Assembly: GCA_029939785.1 (NCBI GenBank)
Contig: JAOZSG010000006.1
Location: 1-25,731 of the forward strand
Length of the DNA stretch: 25,731 bases
Origin: Fidelibacterota bacterium
Lineage (GTDB): Bacteria; Fidelibacterota; UBA2242; JAFGTP01
Direction: 5' to 3'
Part shown: positions 4,057-21,854 of the stretch, piece by piece
Position numbering within the stretch: the stretch's first letter is position 1
Layout: each line of letters starts with the position of its first letter
Translations under genes and position numbers: made by a program
Notes under the pieces: model-generated
Databases searched by the model: none
Told to the model about the DNA's origin: nothing
Seen by the model: the letters and a program-made list of their open reading frames with translations, nothing else

Positions 4057-5730
<1,674 letters not shown>

Positions 5731-5753
5731 TAAATTCCTTAATTCATAAACTT

Positions 5754-5789
5754 AAAAGCCTTAGCAACTTTCAGCTAAGGCTTTTTTTT
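5754..5789 (+). terminator. Intrinsic terminator of groESL
   Basis: AAAAGCCTTAGC-AACTTTCA-GCTAAGGCTTTT stem-loop with an 8-T run, about 25 bp after the groEL stop. Confidence 0.9.
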
Positions 5790-5868
5790 AATATATAGAA
5801 AAACTATATATCCTCTTTCTTGATTATAAATTAATACTTAATTAAATTTGAAAAAAACAGGACTAAAA

Positions 5869-9194: not shown

Positions 9195-10445
9195 CTAATT
9201 TTTTTTTGTGGCATTTCTTAAAAAAGCCGGAATACCAAGTTGTTCATGGTCTTTATATTTCTTATTATAAAAAGTTACTTTACTTTCCTTTGATTTTACT
9301 TTTCCAGATATTAATTCAGTATTTAATTTATTTTCTTCACTTGATATTATATTTTGTTCAATGTTATCCATTTCAATAATATCCAATTGTTTATCTTTAG
9401 GAACCTCAAAGGGTAAATTACTAATTGATTTTTCAGATTCCTGCTCTTCGATAATAATATCATCTATTTTATCTTGTTTAATATTTTTCGGATTAAAACC
9501 GGTTGCAATTACAGTTATCATAATCTCATCTTCCAGTTTTACATCTTCAACAGCACCTACAATGATATCTGCATCTGTTCCAGCTTCTTCTGTAATAATT
9601 CTACATGCTTCATCATATTCAATAAGTTTTAGATCTTTACCACCCGTGATATTAATTAATATACCTGTTGCTCCTTTTATACTTCTATCATTAAGAAGAG
9701 GACTTGAAATAGCTTGTTGAGCTGCAAGTATAGCGCGTTCTTCACCAGTCGCTACACCAGTACCCATTATTGCATCACCTTTATCTTTCATTATACTTCT
9801 GACATCTGCAAAATCTAAATTCATCAAACCATGATTATTAATCAAATCAGATATTCCTTTAGTTGCCTGATATAATATACTGTCTGCAGTACGAAATGCT
9901 TCTCGCAATCCAGTATTTCTATCTACAATGTTTATCAATCTTTGATTAGGAATTGCTATTAAAGTATCAACATTCTCTTTTAATTCCATTAAACCTTTTT
10001 CTGCTTGCTCTTTCCTGTTTTTTCCTTCAAAATCAAAGGGCATTGTAACAATTCCAACTGTTAAACAATTTTGGTTTTTTGCAATTTTTGCTATCAAAGG
10101 CGACGCTCCTGTTCCTGTGCCACCACCCATTCCGGCAGTAATAAAAACCATATCTGCATTACCTATTGCTTGCTCTAGTCCGTGAGTATCCGCTAATAAG
10201 GCATTCTGTCCAACAGTATTTTTTCCACCGGCTCCTAAGCCTCTTGTAAGTTCTTTCCCAATTTGAATTTTTGTCTTCGCTTTACTATCTTCCAGATCCT
10301 GGGCATCAGTATTTACAGAAATAAAATCAACTCCATCCAAACCGGCTTCAATCATCCTATTCACAGCATTACCACCTGCTCCGCCAACACCAACAACTTT
10401 TAACCGTGCTCTCTGATCGATTGTTTCATCAAATTCAAATTTCAT
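9195..10445 (-). CDS. ftsZ: Cell division protein FtsZ
   Basis: VVGVGGAGGNAVNRM, AGMGGGTGTG tubulin signature, NLDFADV T7 loop, acidic linker, C-terminal IPAFLR. Confidence 0.99.
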   Translation of the reverse strand: MKFEFDETIDQRARLKVVGVGGAGGNAVNRMIEAGLDGVDFISVNTDAQDLEDSKAKTKIQIGKELTRGLGAGGKNTVGQNALLADTHGLEQAIGNADMVFITAGMGGGTGTGASPLIAKIAKNQNCLTVGIVTMPFDFEGKNRKEQAEKGLMELKENVDTLIAIPNQRLINIVDRNTGLREAFRTADSILYQATKGISDLINNHGLMNLDFADVRSIMKDKGDAIMGTGVATGEERAILAAQQAISSPLLNDRSIKGATGILINITGGKDLKLIEYDEACRIITEEAGTDADIIVGAVEDVKLEDEIMITVIATGFNPKNIKQDKIDDIIIEEQESEKSISNLPFEVPKDKQLDIIEMDNIEQNIISSEENKLNTELISGKVKSKESKVTFYNKKYKDHEQLGIPAFLRNATKKN

Positions 10446-10467
10446 AATTTAATACCCTCCGTTTATC

Positions 10468-11721
10468 TTATGATATTTTTTTTATATATGATTTAATTTT
10501 TTGCCAAAAATTAGTTGATTTTTCAACAAAAGCATAGATTCTTTTAGGTTTATTTTCTATTGCAAACTTTAATAAACCTATTAATGCTGAATATTCAGGT
10601 AATGATAATTCATCTTCAAATCCTTTAAATCCTTTTGGAAAAGCTAAACGTGTTGAACTTTTGAATATTTTATCTGCTAACTCTTCGCATCCTCTTACTG
10701 TTGCACCTCCACCAGTCAAACAAATTACAGGATTAATTCCTTCAATAATATCTGCATTATTTGCTTCAAGCATTGCATCTTGTAAAATCTCTTCCATTCT
10801 TGCTTTTATATATTTTGCCAAACTAATATTATCAATATCCTTTTTATTTCTGCCAGCCAAACCTTTAAATTCAATTACTTCTCTTTTTGGAATAATAGTA
10901 TCTTCAGCCCAACCATAATCTTTTTTTACTTGTTCTGCATTTTCATGTGTAATTTTTAGCATGTATGATATGTCATTGGTCACACTATTACCTGCATTAT
11001 TTACAGTTCCAGTATGATAAACACTATTCTTATAAAAAACAATGACATCAGTAATTCCATATCCAATATCAAGCAAAATTGTGCCAAGTTCTTTTTCATC
11101 TTTATCCAAAGTACTGTATGAAGAAGCCAAAGATTGTAAAACATATCGTTCGATATTTAAACCAGCTTTATTTATACATTTTGTCAAATTACTTACAGAA
11201 ATTACATTATAAGTAGAAAGATGTACCTTAACCTCAAGTCTCCTGCCATTAAGATTAATAGGATTTTTTATACCATGTTGACTATCTATAATATATTCTT
11301 TTTCAAAAAGATGAAGTATTTCTCGTTCTGAATGAAGTGGAAAACCTTTAGTATGCTCTAAAACTTTTCTAACATCGCTTTGTATAATTTCTCTAGGTTC
11401 ACCTAAACCAGGTGTATTTTCCTTTGATACTGAGATTCTTCCATTCGTATCAATTCCTCTAATATGATCTCCTGTTATTCCAACATAACAATTTTCAATT
11501 AATAATCCTGACATTTTTTCAGCAATTCTCTTCGCTTCTTTAATTGCTTTGGTTGCTTCTTCTACATCTGATATTAATCCTTTACTTATTCCTCTCGCTG
11601 GTACTTCACCATACCCTCGAATTATAGGTTCTTTCATTTCTTCATTAACTTCTGCAACTGCAATTCTGATCTTTGATGATCCAATATCCAGAGCTGCAAT
11701 TTGTCTTGTATTCATTTTCAT
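10468..11721 (-). CDS. ftsA: Cell division protein FtsA
   Basis: ALDIGSSKI, LLDIGYGITDV and LTGGG actin-fold motifs, amphipathic C-terminus, directly upstream of ftsZ. Confidence 0.97.
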   Translation of the reverse strand: MKMNTRQIAALDIGSSKIRIAVAEVNEEMKEPIIRGYGEVPARGISKGLISDVEEATKAIKEAKRIAEKMSGLLIENCYVGITGDHIRGIDTNGRISVSKENTPGLGEPREIIQSDVRKVLEHTKGFPLHSEREILHLFEKEYIIDSQHGIKNPINLNGRRLEVKVHLSTYNVISVSNLTKCINKAGLNIERYVLQSLASSYSTLDKDEKELGTILLDIGYGITDVIVFYKNSVYHTGTVNNAGNSVTNDISYMLKITHENAEQVKKDYGWAEDTIIPKREVIEFKGLAGRNKKDIDNISLAKYIKARMEEILQDAMLEANNADIIEGINPVICLTGGGATVRGCEELADKIFKSSTRLAFPKGFKGFEDELSLPEYSALIGLLKFAIENKPKRIYAFVEKSTNFWQKIKSYIKKIS

Positions 11722-11728
11722 TGAAACT

Positions 11729-12481
11729 TTATTCCTTTACAATGATTTGATTTTTCCATCTTAAATCCAAATATTTATAATCACTTAATCTTCTGCTTCC
11801 TGCAATAACATTTTGAAATTGTGCTAAAATCTTCATTTTTTTACTATAATTTTTCCCACCAAGAAATATGGGATTTCCACTATCAACATTATATAAATTA
11901 AGTTCATCTTTTTTTCTATTATATTGTATTTCTGAAATTGTCATAAATAATGCTTTTAGATTTGTATATGACGAGATTACAATATTTGTGATTTCGGAAA
12001 TTTTTGGCACACTAACAATTTTACCTAAATGTAAATTATAAGTCGAATCAGAAAAACCTGATATAATTGGCAATTCGTTGATAATTACTTCTTCTGGCAT
12101 TGGTAAAAGTATATTTTCCTGATCTATCAAAAACAATTCATCAACATTGAGATAAGCAATTGGAATTCTTTCATTAATTTGAATATTGATTTTATTTGGA
12201 TAAACCTTACTAACCCATGCGGCCTTAACATAGGGAATAACCTCAATATTATTTTGAGTAGTCTGAATATCAATTTTCCGAATATTGTTCCCTTTATACA
12301 AATTACTTACTGATAAAATTTGATCATCTGTCAACAGATTTGTTCCTGAAATAATTACTGTATCCAGACCAAAAAAGTTTGAATATTCACACCAGGACAA
12401 TGTACTCCTAAAAAATGTAACAACACAGCCTACACTAATTATTAGAAAAATGATCCTTTTTATTTTTATTTTTTCAAACAT
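11729..12481 (-). CDS. ftsQ: Cell division protein FtsQ/DivIB
   Basis: N-terminal TM helix, POTRA-like ISGTNLL...PYVKAAWVSKVYPNKINIQINERIPIA, C-terminal YLDLRWKNQIIVK; upstream of ftsA. Confidence 0.92.
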   Translation of the reverse strand: MFEKIKIKRIIFLIISVGCVVTFFRSTLSWCEYSNFFGLDTVIISGTNLLTDDQILSVSNLYKGNNIRKIDIQTTQNNIEVIPYVKAAWVSKVYPNKINIQINERIPIAYLNVDELFLIDQENILLPMPEEVIINELPIISGFSDSTYNLHLGKIVSVPKISEITNIVISSYTNLKALFMTISEIQYNRKKDELNLYNVDSGNPIFLGGKNYSKKMKILAQFQNVIAGSRRLSDYKYLDLRWKNQIIVKE

Positions 12482-13592
12482 TTTTATTTATACTTTTTAA
12501 AATATCATTCACAATTTCTTTTGCTGCATTAGGTTTTGATAATGCTCTGGCGTTTTCAGACATTCCTTTCATTCTTCTTTTATCATTAAATATTTCATTA
12601 ATGTGATTCGAAATATTCTGAATATTTAAATTTTTTTGTAATAATACAATACCAGCTTGTTGATTCTCCAAACTTCGTGCGTTTTTCTCCTGATGGTTTC
12701 CGGCAGCTGTTGGTAGAGGTATCAATATAGATGGTTTACCAAACAAACATATTTCAGCAAGAGTTAAAGCCCCTGCTCTACTTATTATCATATCAGATGC
12801 AGAGTATGCAAAATCCATATTATAAATAAAGGGTGATATATGTAAATATTTATTTTTTCCATATTTTGAATATATTTTATCAAAATCTGCCGGTCCGGTT
12901 TGCCAAATAAATTGACAATCAATTTTTTCCAGTAATTCTTCTATATTTTCATATAAAAAATTATTTATTGGTCTTGATCCCTGACTGCCACCAAATACGA
13001 ATAATGTTCTTTTCCCAGGAATGAGTTTAAAAAAATCTAAACTTTTTCCTTTCGGTTTTTCTTTTAATGAAATTCTTAACGGTGTACCAAAAAATTTAAT
13101 ATTTTTCAAATATTTTTCTGATTCACGATAAGAAACATATATTGTATTTGAGTATTTTGATAGCATCCTTATAGTCACACCAGGAAAAGCATTCTGTTCC
13201 TGAAGAAAAATCGGGATTTTCAATTTTGCCGCGACATAAATAGCAGGACCTGAAGCATAGCCACCGGTACCAATTGCAATATCCGGTTTAAATTTGTTAA
13301 TAAGTATGAATGATTGTACAAAACTAATTACTATTCTAAATGGTGCCAGTAAATTAATTTTGATTGAGCGAAATGAAAAATCTCGCTGAAATCCTTTTAT
13401 CCATATTTTACCAAAATTATAACCTAATTTAGGAACTAATCTGCTCTCTATTCCATAACTAGATCCAATGAACAGTTCCTCCATATTTTCACCTAACTGT
13501 GATTTAAATTCTTCACACAAAGCAATTGCCGGATAAAGATGTCCCCCGGTACCTCCACCTGAAAATAATATTTTTATTTTTTTATTAATCAT
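12474..13592 (-). CDS. murG: Lipid I GlcNAc transferase MurG
   Basis: GGGTGGHLYPA, GTGGYASGP, QEQNAFPG, GGSQGS, SRAGALT, NHQEKNA. Confidence 0.98.
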   Translation of the reverse strand: MINKKIKILFSGGGTGGHLYPAIALCEEFKSQLGENMEELFIGSSYGIESRLVPKLGYNFGKIWIKGFQRDFSFRSIKINLLAPFRIVISFVQSFILINKFKPDIAIGTGGYASGPAIYVAAKLKIPIFLQEQNAFPGVTIRMLSKYSNTIYVSYRESEKYLKNIKFFGTPLRISLKEKPKGKSLDFFKLIPGKRTLFVFGGSQGSRPINNFLYENIEELLEKIDCQFIWQTGPADFDKIYSKYGKNKYLHISPFIYNMDFAYSASDMIISRAGALTLAEICLFGKPSILIPLPTAAGNHQEKNARSLENQQAGIVLLQKNLNIQNISNHINEIFNDKRRMKGMSENARALSKPNAAKEIVNDILKSINKNV

Positions 13593-14700
13593 TTATAATA
13601 ACCAATTTTTCATCATTGATTTTTTGCTGATGTTGTCTTGATATATTAAGAACAATTCCAACAGCAATAAAATTATATATCATCGAAGAACCACCGTAAC
13701 TGATAAAAGGTAATGGTAAACCTGTGACTGGAAATATTCCACAAACAACTCCAATATTTATTAATGCATATATAAAAATACTCACAGACAATCCTACACC
13801 AACAAGAGTACCAAAAATATCAGAAGACCTAAAAGAAATTTTCATTCCTTTTATAAAAATATATATAAATATAATCAATAGTAACATCGCTCCAATAAAT
13901 CCAAATTCCTCTCCAAAAATTGCAAATATAAAATCTGTATTCGCCTCAGGCAAAAAGTGATTTTTTCCGATACTATCACCAAGTCCTGCACCCCAAACAC
14001 CACCATTTCCAAGACAAAGGTATGATTGATAAAGTTGATATCCTGCTCCCTGAATATCCTGCTCAGGATTCATATATGAAAAGACTCTTTTTATTTTATA
14101 TGGTGAATGAATTATTGATACAAAAGCGAATAACAGAAATAAAAAACCAAAAATCATAAGATGTTTCATTTTGGTTCCACCAATAAACATAATCATAACT
14201 GCAATTGCGGCCGTTACTGCACTAGTACTGAAATCAGGTTCAAGTACAATCAAAAATAGAAATACAAAAAGAACTATCGTAAGAGGTAAAAACCCATTCT
14301 TAAAATCATGTAATTCCTCCTGATGATTTTCAAAAAAAGTGGCAAAATAAATGATCAATGCAAATTTTGCAAATTCAGCAGGTTGTATTTTAATTGGTCC
14401 GATAGGTAACCAGCGACACACATGAGTATGACTATCTTTGAAAAATAATACTGCAACAAGTGAAATGATGGATAAAACCGCCACTACTAATGATATTTTT
14501 TTTAAAAATTTATAATTAATAAATAAGAAAAACAGCCCAATAATAATTCCAATACCAATTCTCATTAAATGTCTCACCATAAAATAATTAGGATCTTTTC
14601 CAAGTTTTGAACTTGCACTATATTGAATAATAAATCCAATACAAATAAGTAAACCTGTTGCAAATAAAAATCCTTTGTCAAATTTTTTTGTTCTATACAT
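13585..14700 (-). CDS. ftsW: SEDS peptidoglycan polymerase FtsW
   Basis: Multi-TM protein; RWL...IQPAEFAK, EPDF, GYQL.QS, LPEANTDFIFAIFGEEFG, PVTGLPLPFISYGGSS. Confidence 0.96.
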   Translation of the reverse strand: MYRTKKFDKGFLFATGLLICIGFIIQYSASSKLGKDPNYFMVRHLMRIGIGIIIGLFFLFINYKFLKKISLVVAVLSIISLVAVLFFKDSHTHVCRWLPIGPIKIQPAEFAKFALIIYFATFFENHQEELHDFKNGFLPLTIVLFVFLFLIVLEPDFSTSAVTAAIAVMIMFIGGTKMKHLMIFGFLFLLFAFVSIIHSPYKIKRVFSYMNPEQDIQGAGYQLYQSYLCLGNGGVWGAGLGDSIGKNHFLPEANTDFIFAIFGEEFGFIGAMLLLIIFIYIFIKGMKISFRSSDIFGTLVGVGLSVSIFIYALINIGVVCGIFPVTGLPLPFISYGGSSMIYNFIAVGIVLNISRQHQQKINDEKLVIIND

Positions 14701-14770
14701 TATTATTCCCGAAAAAAACTAATCACTTCATTAAATATCTCTTATAAAAATTCGACATAAACCCAATTCA

Positions 14771-15874
14771 TTATAAAACTTTAAAACTACTCAAACTCAA
14801 TAAAGCGAGTAAGATACCAACAATCCAAAATCTTATTACTATTTTTTCTTCCGGCATTCCATTTAATTCATAATGATGATGAAGTGGTGCCATTTTGAAA
14901 ATTCTTTTACCTTCACCTGTACGTTTTTTTGTATATTTGAAATAACTTACCTGAATCATTACCGATAAAGCTTCAACAACAAATACTCCCCCAAGTAAGG
15001 CAAATAATATCTCTTTACGTAATAAAATGGCAAGAGTACCAATAGCCCCACCCATTCCAAGAGATCCAATATCACCCATAAATACTTGTGCTGGCTTACT
15101 GTTATACCATAAAAACCCAAGTAAACCACCAGTTAATGCAAGGCAAAATACTGTTAATTCTCCTGAGCCTTCAAGATAAATTGTATTAAGGTAATTACTG
15201 AAATCAATACGACCGGAAACATAACTTATCAAAGCTAATGATAATGCAGCAATACCCATTAATCCGGCAGCTAAACCATCCAATCCATCAGTCAGGTTTA
15301 CAGCATTGGAAGTACCTGTTATCACAAAAACAACAAATGGAATATAAAATATACCAAGATCAATATACATATTTTTTAAAAATGGTATAGAAACAATAGT
15401 GTTGAATTCACTAAACTGAGGTAAAAAATAAATTGTACTGCCAACTATTAAACCTGCTATAATCTGACCAATCATCTTATACCTGGCAATCAAACCCTTT
15501 TTAAATTTTTTAACTACTTTTAAATAATCATCAATAAACCCAATTCCACTCATCCATAATGTTGCAAAAAGTATAAGTAAAATGTAAACATTACTCAAAT
15601 CAGCCCATAAAAGTGTTGGTAATAAAACCGAAAAGAGAATAATTATTCCTCCCATTGTAGGAGTTCCTTTTTTACTTTGATGAGATTTAGGACCATCATC
15701 TCTAATTGTTTCACCTATCTGATTTTTTCTAAGTATTTTTATAATCAACGGACCTATAAAAAAACTTATTATCATTGCAGTAATTGCTGCCATTGCAGCA
15801 CGAAAAGTTATATAACTGAACAAGTTGAATGCTGAAAATTTATCTTTTAACGGGTATAAAAAATTATAAAACAT
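14771..15874 (-). CDS. mraY: Phospho-MurNAc-pentapeptide translocase MraY
   Basis: KKGTPTMGG, GFIDDYLK, NAVNLTDGLDGL, VFMGDIGS, MAPLHHHYE. Confidence 0.99.
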   Translation of the reverse strand: MFYNFLYPLKDKFSAFNLFSYITFRAAMAAITAMIISFFIGPLIIKILRKNQIGETIRDDGPKSHQSKKGTPTMGGIIILFSVLLPTLLWADLSNVYILLILFATLWMSGIGFIDDYLKVVKKFKKGLIARYKMIGQIIAGLIVGSTIYFLPQFSEFNTIVSIPFLKNMYIDLGIFYIPFVVFVITGTSNAVNLTDGLDGLAAGLMGIAALSLALISYVSGRIDFSNYLNTIYLEGSGELTVFCLALTGGLLGFLWYNSKPAQVFMGDIGSLGMGGAIGTLAILLRKEILFALLGGVFVVEALSVMIQVSYFKYTKKRTGEGKRIFKMAPLHHHYELNGMPEEKIVIRFWIVGILLALLSLSSFKVL

Positions 15875-17232
15875 TAGTGAGTAATTCCTTTTATTATTTC
15901 TTCCATTTTTGAGCCTCTCGATCCTTTTACCAAAAGAACATCTGATGGATTTAAATTTTTATTTAATAACGTAATAATATCATCTTTTTCTGAAAAATGA
16001 ATTGCGTTTACCATACCATTTTTTCGGGCTTCTTTTGTTGCATAAAATGATCTTTTGCCTGATGTATAAAAATAATCAATTTTATTTTCTACTATGAATT
16101 TTCCTATTTCACCATGAAGATCATTTTCTCTTTCGCCTAATTCAAGCATATCTCCGAGTATAAAGTATTTCTTACCTTGAGTTTTTATTTTATTTAAGGT
16201 AGTAATTGCAGCTCTTGTTGAATCCGGATTTGCATTATATGAATCATCAATAATTCTACATAATCCCTGAACATTAGCAAATCTCCCGTCTACACTGGTA
16301 TAATTTTCCAATGCGTTTTTAACATCACTAAAAATTACACCAAAATGTAATCCTACACATGCTGCTCCCAAAGCATTATTAGCCTGATATAAACCACAAA
16401 CAGAAAGTTGAATTGTTTCTGAATTATTTATAGAAAATGCAACACATCCATTATCATCAATTGATACAATTTTTCCATAATAATCTAATTTTTTTGATGT
16501 AAAACCATATTTTATACAATTCACAGCAGGTTTAAATTCTTTAATATATTTATCATCATAATTAATAAATGCTGTTCCATCTTTGGTTAAATTATCAAAT
16601 AATTCTCTTTTTTCCTTTGCAACTCCTTCAATATTATGTAAAAATTCAATATGCCCCTGCCCGATATTTGTTATAAGTCCATAATTTGGTTTTCCAATAT
16701 CACAGAGTATTTTTATTTCACCAAAGCCACTAGTCCCCATCTCCAGAATAGAAAAATCATATGAATCATTCAGAGTCATTATTGTCATTGGAAGTCCAAG
16801 ATGGTTATTCAAATTTCCTTTTGTAGAATGCACATTATATTTTTTATTTAAAATTTCTCTGATCATAGAACGGGTAGTTGTTTTGCCACTTGTTCCGGTG
16901 ATTCCTAAAAATGGTATATCAAAACTTTTTCTAACAACTTTCGCTAATTTTTGCAGAGCCAATTCAGGTGAAGAAACAATCCAAAGTGGATAGTTGGAAA
17001 AATCAGATGAATTGTTTTGAAACCATTCCTCAGACACAATGCTAAATGCTGCACCATTATCACTTGCCTTTGCAATAAAATTATGACCGTCTGTGTTTTC
17101 ACCCTTTAGAGCAACAAAAATTACATTTTGTGTAATTTGCCGACTATCAATCGAAACTGCAGTCCCATAATCTGAAAAATTTATCACTTTCCCATATTTA
17201 ATTTTTAATATCAAATCCTTATTAATATTCAT
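15874..17232 (-). CDS. murF: UDP-MurNAc-tripeptide:D-Ala-D-Ala ligase MurF
   Basis: IDSR, FVALKGENTDGH, GITGTSGKTTT, GNLNNHLGLP, EMG...GEI, IIDDSYNANPDS, GDMLELG and LVKGSRG are MurF-type motifs. The MurE DYAHTP and MurC DDYAHHP motifs are absent. Confidence 0.95.
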   Translation of the reverse strand: MNINKDLILKIKYGKVINFSDYGTAVSIDSRQITQNVIFVALKGENTDGHNFIAKASDNGAAFSIVSEEWFQNNSSDFSNYPLWIVSSPELALQKLAKVVRKSFDIPFLGITGTSGKTTTRSMIREILNKKYNVHSTKGNLNNHLGLPMTIMTLNDSYDFSILEMGTSGFGEIKILCDIGKPNYGLITNIGQGHIEFLHNIEGVAKEKRELFDNLTKDGTAFINYDDKYIKEFKPAVNCIKYGFTSKKLDYYGKIVSIDDNGCVAFSINNSETIQLSVCGLYQANNALGAACVGLHFGVIFSDVKNALENYTSVDGRFANVQGLCRIIDDSYNANPDSTRAAITTLNKIKTQGKKYFILGDMLELGERENDLHGEIGKFIVENKIDYFYTSGKRSFYATKEARKNGMVNAIHFSEKDDIITLLNKNLNPSDVLLVKGSRGSKMEEIIKGITH

Positions 17233-17273
17233 TTATAAAATCTTTCAAGATTTATTTATCTTCATTATCTATT

Positions 17274-19265
17274 TCATGAAGAAAGATCAACAATACAAAC
17301 AGTTCCATTTTTTACAATTTTCCCTCGCGAAACACTTTGTTTCTGTACTTTACCAGAACCTCTGATTATCATGTGTAATCCACAGGATTGACCTACTGTC
17401 AATGCTTTTTGCATACTCATTTTTCTAAAATCAGGAACTTTAATCATTCCACTATTATTATCAACTTTTGATATAAATTGATTTCCCTTTCTCGGTAAAG
17501 TTTTTTTGACAATCTCATTTTCTAAAGTTGTCGTTACTATATTACTATTTTGTTTATTTTTCTTATTCTTCTTATTTGTTAACATTATTGTATTGGATAA
17601 ATTTGTAATTCTTGTAAAAACATTTTTAACAACCGGGGCAGATACTGTACCACCATAATGATTAGGACCTTTAGGATTATCTACAACTACAACACAAACA
17701 AGTTGGGGATTTTCTGCCGGAAAAAATCCTGCAAAAGATGCAATATACTCAGATTTGCTATATTTACCATCTACAACTTTCTGTGCTGTTCCTGTTTTTC
17801 CGGCTATATTCATACCTCGAACATTAGCCTTTGTTCCGGTTCCACTTTTCACTGTATGTAATAGTAATTTTCGAATAATTTCCATTGTATTTTCTGATGC
17901 AACTCTCCGAATAACTTTCTTTTTATTTATACTAATTTTTCCAGTTGGTTTTATAATTGATTTAACTATTTGTGGCTTTAACAATTCTCCTCCGTTAGCA
18001 ATAGCAGAGTAAGCCATTGCAAGTTGCAGAGATGTACAGGTTATTCCATGCCCCATAGCAACCTGAGCAAGTCTTAAATCAGTCCATTTTTTTAGACTTA
18101 CAAGTTGTCCCGGCACTTCACCTGGAAAATCAATATTAGTTTTTGCTCCAAATCCAAATTTTAAAATGTATGTGAACAATTCAGACTTCCCTAATTTTTG
18201 TGCGACTTTAATTGTCCCTACATTACTACTATGTTTAATTACATCAGCAAAAGAAAGATTGGGATAAACTTCATGATCATGAATTTTTCTGGTTTGGACA
18301 ATAATATATCCTTTCTCAGTTTCAATAGTATCTTCCGGAGTAACTGATTTTTCTTCTAAAGCTGCTGTAGCTGCAACTATTTTAAATGTTGAACCGGGCT
18401 CAAATATATCGGTAACTAAAATATTTTTTCGACTTGAAACATTGTAATCCAGAGTATGATTCGGATCAAATAATGGAATACTGGCAACTGCTCTAATTTC
18501 ACCTGTTGCCGGATCAACTATAATACCCATTGCATTGTCTGCATCAAACTTTTCAAATGCAGCATATAATTCCTGTTGAAGAATCGCCTGATATTCATGA
18601 TCTAAAGTTAAAATTATATCAGAACCATCAATTGCCGGTTTTTTGTTAAAATCCGGACGGAATGTTTTTTTTCCTTTACCATCTTTTTCTAAAATCTGAA
18701 AACCCGGAGTACCTGACAATTCCGAATTAAATTCCTTTTCAAGTCCACTTAAACCATTGTTATCGACATTTGTAAACCCGAGAAGCTGTCCAGATAACTC
18801 ATTAAAAGGATATTCACGATGATTTTTTTCATAAATAATAATATTTTTATTATTTTTATATTTTTTAAATAATTCATTACCTATGCTTTTAGGAACATTT
18901 CTTTCAAGCCATACAAATTTCTGACCTGATTTTAATTTTTTAAGATATTGTTGATAATTTGTATTGAACGTCTTTGCAAATTCTTTTGCTAATCTTGTCT
19001 TATACTTTATTTGAAGAGGATGTGCTGCAAAAGAATAATGAATAGTGTTTATAGCCAGAGGTTTATGATTTCTGTCAAAAATTGTGCCTCTGCCTGATTC
19101 TAAAGTTTTTTTATACTCAGATTGTTTACGTGAAATATTACGATAATGTTCATTATTAGTGACCTGGATGGAAAATAATTTACCAACAATTACAATCCAC
19201 ACCAAAACTAAGAAAAAACTTAAAAAATAGATTCTTTTTTTTATATTTGATTTTATAATTTCCAT
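17274..19265 (-). CDS. ftsI: Class B PBP FtsI/PBP3 with a C-terminal PASTA-like domain
   Basis: N-terminal TM, RGTIFDR, R.YP, GLSGLE, EPGSTFK (SxxK), SSN (SxN), GKTGTAQ (KTG), C-terminal VPDF...GSGKVQKQS. Confidence 0.96.
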   Translation of the reverse strand: MEIIKSNIKKRIYFLSFFLVLVWIVIVGKLFSIQVTNNEHYRNISRKQSEYKKTLESGRGTIFDRNHKPLAINTIHYSFAAHPLQIKYKTRLAKEFAKTFNTNYQQYLKKLKSGQKFVWLERNVPKSIGNELFKKYKNNKNIIIYEKNHREYPFNELSGQLLGFTNVDNNGLSGLEKEFNSELSGTPGFQILEKDGKGKKTFRPDFNKKPAIDGSDIILTLDHEYQAILQQELYAAFEKFDADNAMGIIVDPATGEIRAVASIPLFDPNHTLDYNVSSRKNILVTDIFEPGSTFKIVAATAALEEKSVTPEDTIETEKGYIIVQTRKIHDHEVYPNLSFADVIKHSSNVGTIKVAQKLGKSELFTYILKFGFGAKTNIDFPGEVPGQLVSLKKWTDLRLAQVAMGHGITCTSLQLAMAYSAIANGGELLKPQIVKSIIKPTGKISINKKKVIRRVASENTMEIIRKLLLHTVKSGTGTKANVRGMNIAGKTGTAQKVVDGKYSKSEYIASFAGFFPAENPQLVCVVVVDNPKGPNHYGGTVSAPVVKNVFTRITNLSNTIMLTNKKNKKNKQNSNIVTTTLENEIVKKTLPRKGNQFISKVDNNSGMIKVPDFRKMSMQKALTVGQSCGLHMIIRGSGKVQKQSVSRGKIVKNGTVCIVDLSS

Positions 19266-19267
19266 TA

Positions 19268-19537
19268 TTATTTATTTATTACCACTAATAATGTTTCCGG
19301 AGCAGGAATAACCATATCCAGTTTTAAAGATGCAATCTGTTTAATTCTATCCGCTCTTGATAATTTTTCGATTTCAATTGTAATAGTTTGATTCTCATTT
19401 ATCAATCTATCCTGTTGTATTTCCAATATACTGATATTATCAATTAACATATCTATTTTATTCCGTTTCCAAATATATAAAAACAAAGAAGATATAATCA
19501 ACACTCCCATTATTAACAATTTTATATGTTTACTCAT
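19268..19537 (-). CDS. ftsL: Cell division protein FtsL
   Basis: 89 aa with a short cytoplasmic N-terminus, TM helix, coiled coil and LSRADRIKQIA...L.M..P; lies between rsmH and ftsI. Confidence 0.85.
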   Translation of the reverse strand: MSKHIKLLIMGVLIISSLFLYIWKRNKIDMLIDNISILEIQQDRLINENQTITIEIEKLSRADRIKQIASLKLDMVIPAPETLLVVINK

Positions 19538-19551
19538 AATACACTCTACTC

Positions 19552-20478
19552 TTATGTTATTAGTTCTACAACTCTAAGTTTTGCACTTCTTGCTCTTGAA
19601 TTTGTTTTAATCTCTTCTTTAGAAGGAAGAATAATTTTTTTTGATAATTTTTTAAATTTTGCAACATGATTACACGTACAAATAGGAAATTCCGGAGGAC
19701 AAAGACACGATGTTGTTTCTCTTTTAATAAATTTCTTAACAATCCTATCTTCCAGAGAATGATAAGTAATTATCACCAATCTTGAACCAACACTCAAAGT
19801 ATCCAATGTCTGTTGAAGTGTGTCCTCAAGAATGTCTAATTCCTGATTTATATGAATTCTAATTGCCTGAAAAACACGACTTAGTGTTTTATTATGAAAG
19901 CGGGATGGCGTGATTTTTTTTATTACATCCGCCAGTTCTATTGTTGTTGATATCCTCTTAATTTCTCTTGCTTTAATTATTGCATTTGAAATTCTTACAC
20001 TATTTTTTTCTTCACCATATTCCCAAATTACTTTTCTAAGAGATTCAAATTCAGCATTATTAATAAAATCTGCTGCACTCATTTTTATTTCTGGTGAAAA
20101 ACGCATATCAAGCGGACCATTTTTACTAAAAGCAATACCTCTTTCAGGATTATCCAGAGCAAAAGATGACATACCAAGATCCATTAAAATACCATTTACT
20201 TTTGGAAAGCCATTCCTGAAACAAAATTTACGTAAAAATTCAAAATTAGAATTAACATATATGGTCTTCTGTTTTATATTAAGATTTTGCTTACAATATT
20301 CTATTGCCTGTGGATCCGCATCAAAACCAATTAATACTGCATCCTTATCAGTATTTCGGGCAATTTCTGAAAAATGTCCACCAGTACCTAAGGTACAATC
20401 AACATAAACACCCGACTTATCGGTGATTAAATAATTTATACATTCATGCAATAATACAGGTATATGCACAGTTACCAT
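19552..20478 (-). CDS. rsmH: 16S rRNA m4C1402 methyltransferase RsmH (MraW)
   Basis: HIPVLL, DCTLGTGGH, DLGMSS, GPLDMRF, VFQAIRI.INQEL, ITYHSLEDRIVK, NSRARSAKLR. Confidence 0.98.
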   Translation of the reverse strand: MVTVHIPVLLHECINYLITDKSGVYVDCTLGTGGHFSEIARNTDKDAVLIGFDADPQAIEYCKQNLNIKQKTIYVNSNFEFLRKFCFRNGFPKVNGILMDLGMSSFALDNPERGIAFSKNGPLDMRFSPEIKMSAADFINNAEFESLRKVIWEYGEEKNSVRISNAIIKAREIKRISTTIELADVIKKITPSRFHNKTLSRVFQAIRIHINQELDILEDTLQQTLDTLSVGSRLVIITYHSLEDRIVKKFIKRETTSCLCPPEFPICTCNHVAKFKKLSKKIILPSKEEIKTNSRARSAKLRVVELIT

Positions 20479-20497
20479 AAAGTCTTACTTCCTAAAA

Positions 20498-20950
20498 TTA
20501 TTTTAAAAGTTCACTAAGTCCGGAAAAATATTCATCATCAGGAGTAAAATTACTGGTATCATAATTTTTATACGTATCAATATTCCATATTTCAAGATGA
20601 TCAACCATGCCAATTATTTTCACTTCTTTTTTAATTCCAACATTATCCAGAAGAATTTGAGGAATAAGAATTCGTCCTTGTTTATCACATCGAAGTCTCT
20701 TCGCTTCGACAACATTAGCTCTAATAAATGCATTATGTTTTCTATCATATGGAGATAAACTTCTTATCATTTTTTCAACCTTAACATCCCATTCCATCGA
20801 AGGATGAACCACAAGACATGGATCAACTCCTCTTGAAACAACAAAAATGCACGATTCCTCATCTGACCATCTACGAAATTCAGCGGGAATACTCAAGCGA
20901 TTCTTTGAATCGATATTATGTGTTGAACTTCCAATTAAAGATACAATCAT
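20498..20950 (-). CDS. mraZ: Transcriptional regulator MraZ
   Basis: Two SpoVT/AbrB repeats (IDSKNRLSIP and CDKQGRILIP), GMVDHLEIW; first gene of the dcw cluster. Confidence 0.95.
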   Translation of the reverse strand: MIVSLIGSSTHNIDSKNRLSIPAEFRRWSDEESCIFVVSRGVDPCLVVHPSMEWDVKVEKMIRSLSPYDRKHNAFIRANVVEAKRLRCDKQGRILIPQILLDNVGIKKEVKIIGMVDHLEIWNIDTYKNYDTSNFTPDDEYFSGLSELLK

Positions 20951-20995
20951 TTTTAGTACTTAACCTACATTTTGTGGGATCTAATAGGAAATCAT

Positions 20996-21010
20996 CCCAC
21001 TTCCTACCAC
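20996..21010 (-). promoter_or_regulatory. Candidate MraZ operator (GTGG direct repeats, 10-bp period)
   Basis: The minus strand reads GTGGTAGGAA GTGGG immediately downstream of the -10 box. MraZ is known to bind TGGG/GTGG-type direct repeats with ~10-bp period upstream of mraZ. Confidence 0.6.
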
Positions 21011-21011
21011 A

Positions 21012-21040
21012 ATATTACGTGTTTTCACCATTTTAGTCAA
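21012..21040 (-). promoter_or_regulatory. sigma70 promoter of the dcw cluster
   Basis: TTGACT-17 nt-TAATAT on the minus strand, about 60 bp upstream of the mraZ ATG. Confidence 0.7.
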
Positions 21041-21167
21041 GTTATATTTCATCTTTTTATAAAGATAAAACAAAAAACAATCTTTCTATTATTTCCTATT
21101 GTGAATATAGAATGTAATTGCTATTTTCAATACATGATAATATGAATAAAAACCAAGGCCTATAAGA

Positions 21168-21854
21168 ATGAACGCAGATATTTTAATAGTTGAAGATGAT
21201 CAAACATTACAAAACATTCTACAAATATTTTTTGAAAACAATTCTGACTATAATTTTGAAATTGTATGGGATACCAAATCAGCTTTGGAGATTTTAAAAG
21301 ATCAAACTTTCGATATAGTTATTACTGATAAAAATCTACCGGGGCAATCTACAAAAGAAGATGGTGGTATAGAAATCCTAAAATATATTCAAAAATTTTG
21401 TCCGAATACCGAAGCAGTAATGATGACAGGATATTCATCTGTTGATACGGCAACAGAGGCAATGAAATTAGGTGCTTTTGATTATATCTGTAAGCCATTC
21501 AAACTTACTGAACTTAAAGAAAAAATCGACAGAATATTAGAATATAAATCTCATTTAGGTCCAAATGAAACCATCTATAATTATAAAAATTTCTACAAAG
21601 ATGTATTAACTTTAATTCAAAATAATAATTCATTATATGAAAATGAAAAACAAGACATTCTTACCACATTTGAAAAAAAGATTGACTATTTTTTCAAAGG
21701 ACAAAAAAACCTGGAACAGATAATTATAGCACAACGTGAAGCCTTGCAAAAAGCCTCCTCACATGCAGAAGAATTACTTGATCACATCAAAAAATCAGAC
21801 CCTGCTTATGATCTCTTATTGAAAATTATTGATGATACTTCAAATCGAGTTTAG
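21168..21854 (+). CDS. Response regulator: receiver plus ~100-aa helical C-terminal domain of unknown function
   Basis: ILIVEDD, VITDKNLP, MMTGY and GAFDYICKPF receiver motifs. The remainder shows no HTH, AAA+, GGDEF or kinase motif that I recognise. Confidence 0.88.
   Translation: MNADILIVEDDQTLQNILQIFFENNSDYNFEIVWDTKSALEILKDQTFDIVITDKNLPGQSTKEDGGIEILKYIQKFCPNTEAVMMTGYSSVDTATEAMKLGAFDYICKPFKLTELKEKIDRILEYKSHLGPNETIYNYKNFYKDVLTLIQNNNSLYENEKQDILTTFEKKIDYFFKGQKNLEQIIIAQREALQKASSHAEELLDHIKKSDPAYDLLLKIIDDTSNRV

Follow-up and report, generated by a model that had tools for sequence, protein, structure and literature searches.

Synthesis of the cell wall from imported fragments has been described in the phylum Fidelibacterota (Marine Group A). 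In Fidelibacter multiformis IA91 (AP035449), peptidoglycan was shown by experiment to derive from exogenous muropeptides (Katayama et al., 2024); genes for muropeptide recycling are present in this organism, which has no capacity of its own to synthesize peptidoglycan (PMC11652737). Its class, AB16, is reported to lack peptidoglycan-synthesis genes and to keep the recycling genes, and the trait was traced to the ancestor of the phylum (PMC11652737; cited also in PMC13507758) as well as to anaerobic sub-lineages (PMC11652737). The stretch of DNA analyzed here (the window; 25,731 nucleotides, contig JAOZSG010000006.1 of assembly GCA_029939785.1) carries the division and cell wall (dcw) gene cluster of another, uncultured member of the phylum. 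It is probably the dcw cluster of a bacterium that no longer makes UDP-N-acetylmuramic acid (UDP-MurNAc)-tripeptide de novo and assembles this precursor from imported peptidoglycan fragments. Such dependency has reportedly been proposed in many phyla.

The genome of the window (G000, in which the window is contig C24) is a metagenome-assembled genome (MAG) of 3.30 Mb in 434 contigs, 91.2% complete and with ~30% G+C, from hydrothermal vent and marine sediment settings, where its depth is ~8× and ~19× in the two source studies. It belongs to the uncultured Marinimicrobia; its relatives are labelled Candidatus Marinimicrobia or Neomarinimicrobiota, and the phylum is now Fidelibacterota. The relatives surveyed were 41 genomes of the class, 23 high-quality genomes for MurI, and 199 high-quality genomes of the phylum for the Mpl-like ligase described below. 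G000 and IA91 share the phylum and the possession of recycling genes. IA91 has 45.6% G+C and belongs to AB16, whereas G000 belongs to a class in which most genomes keep MurC to MurF and MurI. Muropeptide-dependent growth and cell shape were shown only for IA91, and none of the 41 relatives of G000 is a complete genome like that of IA91.

Further systems were compared. Tannerella forsythia, known earlier as a MurNAc auxotroph, is without MurA and MurB, needs external MurNAc or muropeptides, and uses AmpG and the AmgK/MurU bypass (PMC7670621, PMC5790795). T. forsythia presumably keeps MurC to MurF, whereas the peptide ligases MurC and MurD are also missing in G000 and in its relative G003, and MurE is missing in G003. 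The recycling pathway of Escherichia coli and Pseudomonas consists of AmpG, NagZ, AmpD, LdcA, and Mpl, together with AnmK, MupP, AmgK, and MurU; homologues of AmpG, AnmK, MurQ, LdcA, and Mpl and an AmgK/MurU-like pair were found in G000. Those bacteria can do without recycling, which operates alongside their de novo synthesis (PMC3060825), whereas in G000 it appears to be the sole route.

The dcw cluster lies on the minus strand of the window, and open reading frames and family scans gave the order mraZ-rsmH-ftsL-ftsI-murF-mraY-ftsW-murG-ftsQ-ftsA-ftsZ. The first genes are mraZ (20498..20950; TIGR00242, 100.8 bits, cut-off 98.35; Pfam MraZ), rsmH, also called mraW (19552..20478; TIGR00006, 330 bits), and ftsL (19268..19537; Pfam FtsL, 28 bits, over threshold; TIGR02209, 34 bits, below cut-off). 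They are followed by ftsI (17274..19265), which encodes a class B penicillin-binding protein whose C-terminus bears a PASTA domain (Pfam PBP_dimer, Transpeptidase, and PASTA). The canonical murE slot is a 41-bp gap (17233..17273) between ftsI and murF (15874..17232), the gene of the D-Ala-D-Ala-adding ligase; the latter was identified as MurF rather than MurE by 404.9 bits on TIGR01143 (cut-off 288.6) vs 122 bits on the murE model. Next to it is mraY (14771..15874; TIGR00445, 408.7 bits), and the canonical murD slot is a 70-bp gap (14701..14770) between mraY and ftsW (13585..14700; TIGR02614, 352.7 bits). In the canonical murC slot, murG (12474..13592; TIGR01133, 306 bits) and ftsQ (11729..12481; Pfam POTRA_1 and FtsQ_DivIB_C) overlap by 8 bp (12474..12481). 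The cluster ends with ftsA (10468..11721; TIGR01174, 349 bits) and ftsZ (9195..10445; TIGR00065, 401 bits). Thus, the canonical interleaving of murE, murD, and murC with murF, mraY, ftsW, and murG was not found, all three slots being empty, and the late wall steps (MurF, MraY, MurG, FtsW, and FtsI) are retained. No remnants of murC, murD, or murE were detected in G000 by relaxed tblastn. The first-pass annotation of the window had listed this gene order with the same spacings and had stated that no slot has room for a ligase, and both statements were borne out. As a separate observation, the PASTA domain of FtsI spans residues 608–659 and the best NCBIfam match of the protein is of the SpoVD type; a PASTA-bearing FtsI is notable for a probably diderm lineage of the Fibrobacterota-Chlorobiota-Bacteroidota (FCB) group that would live on muropeptides.

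Mis-assembly at the three junctions, which had been named as a ground for refutation, was excluded by the assemblies of two independent studies. In the first, a marine-sediment run, a single contig of 15,174 bp covered window positions 10395–21200 gap-free with 12 mismatches; in the second, on a hydrothermal vent, contigs bridged each of the three junctions separately. The same reduced order was present elsewhere in the family, in G003 (62-kb contig) and in G006 (295-kb contig), and the canonical order was present in the relatives G001, G004, G005, and G010 and in E. coli. The reduced cluster is in itself not evidence of loss: two ligase sets coexisted in the family (see below), and G006 has the reduced cluster together with a separate ligase block.

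Family searches of the whole 3.30 Mb of G000 returned no MurC or MurD above cut-off. The Mur-ligase-fold genes found were MurF, one MurE (contig C107), one Mpl-like ligase (contig C316), and copies of FolC, of which there are two, one on C316 (cut by the contig end) and one on C421. MurA was not found, the weak match being AroA; a divergent MurB-like gene, below cut-off, is present without it (C39:20063-21103). Canonical MurI (glutamate racemase) was not found either, and DapF is present. Both G000 (C329:13161-14039; L049:7161-8039) and G003 (C37; L048:16955-17848) carry a divergent MurI-like racemase scoring 57–66 bits, with no Pfam match and with the motifs DSGLGG, ACNT, and GCTHY and both catalytic-cysteine motifs kept. 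The neighbouring gene encodes a LysM protein (G000) or an M20 amidohydrolase (G003), and the racemase also occurs in several relatives with canonical MurI.

The same pattern was found in G003, a 97% complete genome of another genus of the same family with a reduced dcw cluster identical to that of G000. Genes of the Mur ligase fold are limited in G003 to MurF, the Mpl-like ligase, and FolC, and family searches found no canonical MurI, MurC, MurD, MurE, or MurA; Ddl, DapF, LdcA, and a MurU-like gene are present. The genes missing from de novo precursor synthesis are thus MurA, MurC, MurD, and canonical MurI in both genomes, and MurE in addition in G003. As MurA is among them, the predicted dependence would reach beyond the stem peptide. 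The search of the genome and its sister genomes for the Mur ligases, as suggested in the first-pass annotation, thus returned neither MurC nor MurD for G000 and G003, both with the Mpl-like ligase; in the class, 36 of 41 genomes have MurD over cut-off. Canonical MurI was present in 21 of the 23 high-quality relatives, the two exceptions being G000 and G003; its absence was dropped as an independent test of loss, since in both G006 and G009 murI sits next to the block of ligases. MurA was found in only 16 of the 41 genomes of the class and a MurU-like gene in 33, so MurNAc salvage seems to be common in the class. A full Ddl-like ATP-grasp region (143–167 bits) fused to ~400 further residues was observed in proteins of 718–728 aa in G003 (C28:5829-6692), G004 (C60:5314-6180), and G001 (C113:4326-5192); this fusion protein was not found in G000.

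The Mpl-like ligase of G000 aligned at full length to both the mpl and the murC models, with 274 and 245 bits, respectively, both below cut-off. Precomputed Pfam matches for near-identical and homologous proteins gave the three Mur ligase domains (PF01225, PF08245, and PF02875), the fold also found in Mpl of E. coli, Psychrobacter arcticus, and Neisseria meningitidis. The best solved relatives are Mpl structures (P. arcticus 3HN7, 168 bits; N. meningitidis 3EAG, 131 bits), with MurC structures at ≤121 bits, and the tree placed the ligase as sister of Mpl from E. coli (bootstrap 100%), the MurC clade standing apart (95%). A 7-residue insertion found in Mpl only, and not in MurC, is present; it reads SAYFEKISK, the published Mpl motif being (S/T)AFFDKRSK, and most Mpl-specific residues of the C-domain are kept (KRR, DDFAHHP, and SN), with EPRSNT changed to EPKSAT (PMC3060825). 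By alignment and tree, the ligase is assigned to the Mpl family as a divergent subfamily. It is a paralogue of MurC and not its orthologue, G001, G004, G006, and G009 carrying both the ligase (55–57% identity) and MurC (~25–30%).

The arrangement amidase-mpl-folC is conserved in G000, G003, G004, and G006, the amidase being of the Amidase_3 type with a hydrophobic N-terminus. Upstream of it are conserved genes for proteins of ~450–650 aa and ~265–285 aa (G000 C316:3816-6431, L132; G003 L030:2593-5294; G004 L032:9200-11775), for which no Pfam or NCBIfam match was obtained; the G003 copy shares ~30% identity with its counterparts in G004 and G006. The closest homologues of the ligase itself (50–60% identity) come from ~112 species of Bacteriovoracia and other Bdellovibrio-like bacteria, with which the subfamily is mainly shared, and their flanking genes are not shared. 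Since the homologues lack shared flanks and the subfamily (SAYFEKISK motif) was found in only 4 of the 199 phylum genomes, a single-gene horizontal transfer, in one direction or the other, is likely. That G000 might be a predator, as these homologues in Bacteriovoracaceae and Bdellovibrio-like bacteria could suggest, was rejected: only the ligase gene is common and not its flanks, few genomes of the phylum have it, and the MurD homologues of the relatives are labelled Marinimicrobia. Three of the homologue-bearing organisms were checked (Halobacteriovorax marinus, Halobacteriovorax sp. CON-3, and Bacteriovorax sp. BSW11_IV), and each also has two MurD-type genes over cut-off.

A recycling set (AmpG, AnmK, MurQ, AmgK/MurU, LdcA, and Mpl) accompanies the ligase in G000; only MurQ (396 bits) and AnmK (438 bits), whose genes lie side by side, scored over cut-off, and the others are best matches below it. 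A permease of the AmpG family (major facilitator superfamily; 144 bits vs a cut-off of 350) adjoins a SpoIID/LytB-type protein, and LdcA and an Opp-like ATP-binding cassette (ABC) operon are present. The AmgK-like and MurU-like genes form a pair with a 4-bp overlap (C45:3612-5069 and 5066-5803; L135:985-3176), scoring 48 bits and 136 bits (cut-off for the latter 250), respectively. The AmgK-like protein is a fusion in which the kinase part (APH domain) is joined to the C-terminal domain of RapZ (Pfam PapZ_C, 120 bits); a RapZ-type domain linked to MurNAc salvage is not known to have been described.

With these genes, the amidase, and the Mpl-like ligase, imported muropeptides would be turned into UDP-MurNAc-tripeptide. 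Whereas gene content and phylogeny are observed, the substrates used and the need for muropeptides from outside are predicted by analogy with recycling in E. coli and Pseudomonas and with F. multiformis. Muropeptides or free stem peptides would enter through the AmpG-family permease and the Opp-like ABC system, and salvaged MurNAc would be converted to UDP-MurNAc by AnmK and the AmgK-like/MurU-like pair. One Mpl-family ligase would then join the tripeptide to UDP-MurNAc, in place of MurC, MurD, and MurE, after which D-Ala-D-Ala would be added by MurF and the wall built by MraY, MurG, FtsW, and FtsI. An Mpl-like ligase with scavenged stem peptides had been one of several options in the first-pass annotation; given the absence of MurC, MurD, and canonical MurI and the presence of the ligase and the recycling set, it is the best-supported reading for G000 and G003, with the use of the substrates predicted.

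Several observations weigh against this reading. The Mpl-like ligase is under the curated equivalog cut-off (274 vs 388.7 bits, TIGR01081), as are the MurU-like, AmgK-like, and AmpG-like proteins under theirs. No homologue of AmpD or MpaA was found in G000 by family search, and its amidase, unlike in the recycling pathway of E. coli and Pseudomonas, is of the exported Amidase_3 type. Some endogenous synthesis is possible, with MurE and the MurB-like gene kept in G000 and the divergent racemase kept in both G000 and G003. Ddl, which MurF requires, was not found in G000 by family searches or relaxed tblastn although murF is intact; the assembly thus has gaps, and single absences in a MAG are weak evidence. 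Finally, in the relatives G006 and G009 the ligase genes stand together in one block (see below), so that a single unassembled piece could account for all of these absences in G000.

G006 combines the reduced dcw cluster with a stand-alone murI-murE-murD-murC block 80 kb away (C61:201008-205922; L157), and the same block, of ~5 kb, is present in G009 of the sister family (C16; L159:10892-15942). In the ligase trees, the genes of the two blocks formed one group (100%), separate from the interleaved ligase genes of G004, G001, and G005, whereas in the dcw-protein tree G006 grouped with G004 and G001, and G000 was next to them. Because the two trees disagree, two ligase sets are taken to have coexisted in the family; G004, G001, and G005 being of the interleaved type and G006 and G009 of the operon type, the species and ligase trees fit no simple history. 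A single murI-murE-murD-murC block probably took all the ligase genes with it when it was lost, and loss of one such block removes exactly the D-Glu supply and the three additions. The earlier argument that three non-adjacent losses covering one sub-pathway point to functional replacement is weakened accordingly: the reduced cluster is real, and the three losses may be one deletion or, in G000, one missing contig. The comparison of Mur ligase phylogeny and dcw order, likewise suggested at the outset, upheld the Mpl affiliation and, in G006, revealed the reduced order beside a separate ligase block. A separate ligase set or plain relocation, two more of the initial options, thus applies to G006 and G009; in G000, no such block was found.

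The strongest rival explanation is that G000 still has the murI-murE-murD-murC block, unassembled or unbinned, and that its precursor synthesis from UDP-MurNAc is ordinary. It draws on the blocks of G006 and G009, on the completeness and fragmentation of the MAG, and on Ddl, which was not found either. In addition, contig C82 of G000 begins inside the gene that is next to murC in G009. In the comparison of synteny around the block, gene order was not conserved among the relatives, with C82 ending there, and on the other flank unrelated genes fill the next 4 kb of contig C338. The 3.30 Mb yielded no trace of the four genes, not even as fragments, the chance of one given 5-kb block being wholly missing is about the missing fraction (~9%), and G003, the more complete genome, is without the same four genes. 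About 50 candidate MurD homologues at 48–62% identity were not assignable to particular samples. With the small missing fraction, no fragments at all, and the matching G003, we regard a hidden block as unlikely, if clearly the best of the alternatives.

The single MurE of G000 lies outside the dcw cluster, in a three-gene module with a homologue of L-Ala-D/L-Glu epimerase and lysA (C107:15444-19345; L051). The MurE is full length (residues 1–490; NF001126, 545 bits, cut-off 373). The epimerase homologue, of the enolase superfamily, has the MR_MLE N- and C-terminal domains and scored 315 bits on NF041118 vs a cut-off of 500. The MurE is 32% identical to the dcw MurE of G004, 36% to that of G006, and 83% to that of G217; the three-gene module is 81–84% identical between G000 and G217, whose dcw proteins are only 23–60% identical to those of G000. 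On a 67-kb scaffold assembled independently from this population, the module stands among ribosomal-protein and other core genes, and the composition of C107 is typical for G000. Being closer to G217 than to the MurE of its own family, amid core genes and with typical composition, the C107 MurE is classed from these comparisons as a recent horizontal gain (a xenologue) and not a relocated native gene. Ordinary, vertically inherited murC, murD, and murE elsewhere in the genome would have spoken against loss; murC and murD were not found, and the murE that exists is of foreign origin. A search for a second genome of the genus through MurE homologues led instead to distant organisms with full canonical clusters (G217 and G221). 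The pairing of murE and the epimerase gene recurs in distant lineages, mostly followed by lysA (L138, L139, L164, and L165); G216, G217, G221, and the complete genome CP030759 carry the module alongside a canonical ligase set. In CP030759 the module has two epimerases, and in G217 it is followed by an NlpC/P60-SH3 peptidase.

An L-Ala-D/L-Glu epimerase homologue is likewise clustered with genes for handling diaminopimelate (DAP) in the ycjG-mpaA genes of E. coli and the ykfABCD genes of Bacillus subtilis. The coupling of the epimerase with a full-length MurE and LysA in G000 is not known from these described operons, and the ykf genes, which the G217 module resembles in its NlpC/P60-type peptidase, are catabolic. 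The module suggests a second alternative, in which the epimerase interconverts L-Ala-L-Glu and L-Ala-D-Glu, the Mpl-like ligase loads L-Ala-D-Glu on UDP-MurNAc, and the acquired MurE adds meso-DAP made by the cell, bypassing MurC, MurD, and MurI without whole tripeptides. The C107 MurE may take UDP-MurNAc-L-Ala-D-Glu from the Mpl-like ligase and the dipeptide, since Mpl of Psychrobacter is weakly active on L-Ala-D-Glu (1.4 vs 260 per min with the tripeptide; PMC3060825). The intact MurE directly beside the epimerase homologue and LysA, the conservation of their pairing across distant lineages, and the presence of DapF all fit this route, and G000 has no other evident source of substrate for MurE. 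G003, however, is without the module and yet has the same reduced cluster; in G216, G217, and G221 the module is accessory to a full ligase set, in G217 it adjoins an NlpC/P60 peptidase in the manner of the catabolic ykf genes, and the epimerase is under its curated cut-off. That a broad-specificity Mpl ligase and the acquired module form such a route from Ala-Glu dipeptides and endogenous meso-DAP, which would be partly de novo and undescribed, is improbable, and as an explanation of the reduced cluster it ranks well behind a hidden block.

A set of non-homologous enzymes that builds the stem tripeptide in the cell, with D-Glu from the divergent racemase, is very hard to credit: G000 and G003 share that racemase with its motifs and the conserved genes without assigned function upstream of the amidase-mpl operon, but no candidate ligases were identified, the racemase paralogue also occurs in relatives with canonical MurI and MurD and could equally catabolise scavenged D-Glu, and G004, with its full ligase set, carries the upstream genes as well.

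Assembly of the precursor from imported fragments, the probable condition of G000, is a lifestyle already published for the phylum, and no new principle is involved. The details added here are the probable block-wise loss, the probably transferred Mpl subfamily, and the transferred MurE-epimerase module. On this reading, the bacteria that build their wall from the fragments of other cells would include a second lineage, from a class of Fidelibacterota other than AB16. A stepwise deepening of the dependence is suggested, in which MurA was lost widely in the class, an Mpl-type ligase was gained horizontally, the peptide genes gathered in one block, and the block was lost. The Mpl-like ligase and the MurE-epimerase pair are testable enzymes, and the gene pattern may serve as a marker for such scavengers in sediment metagenomes.

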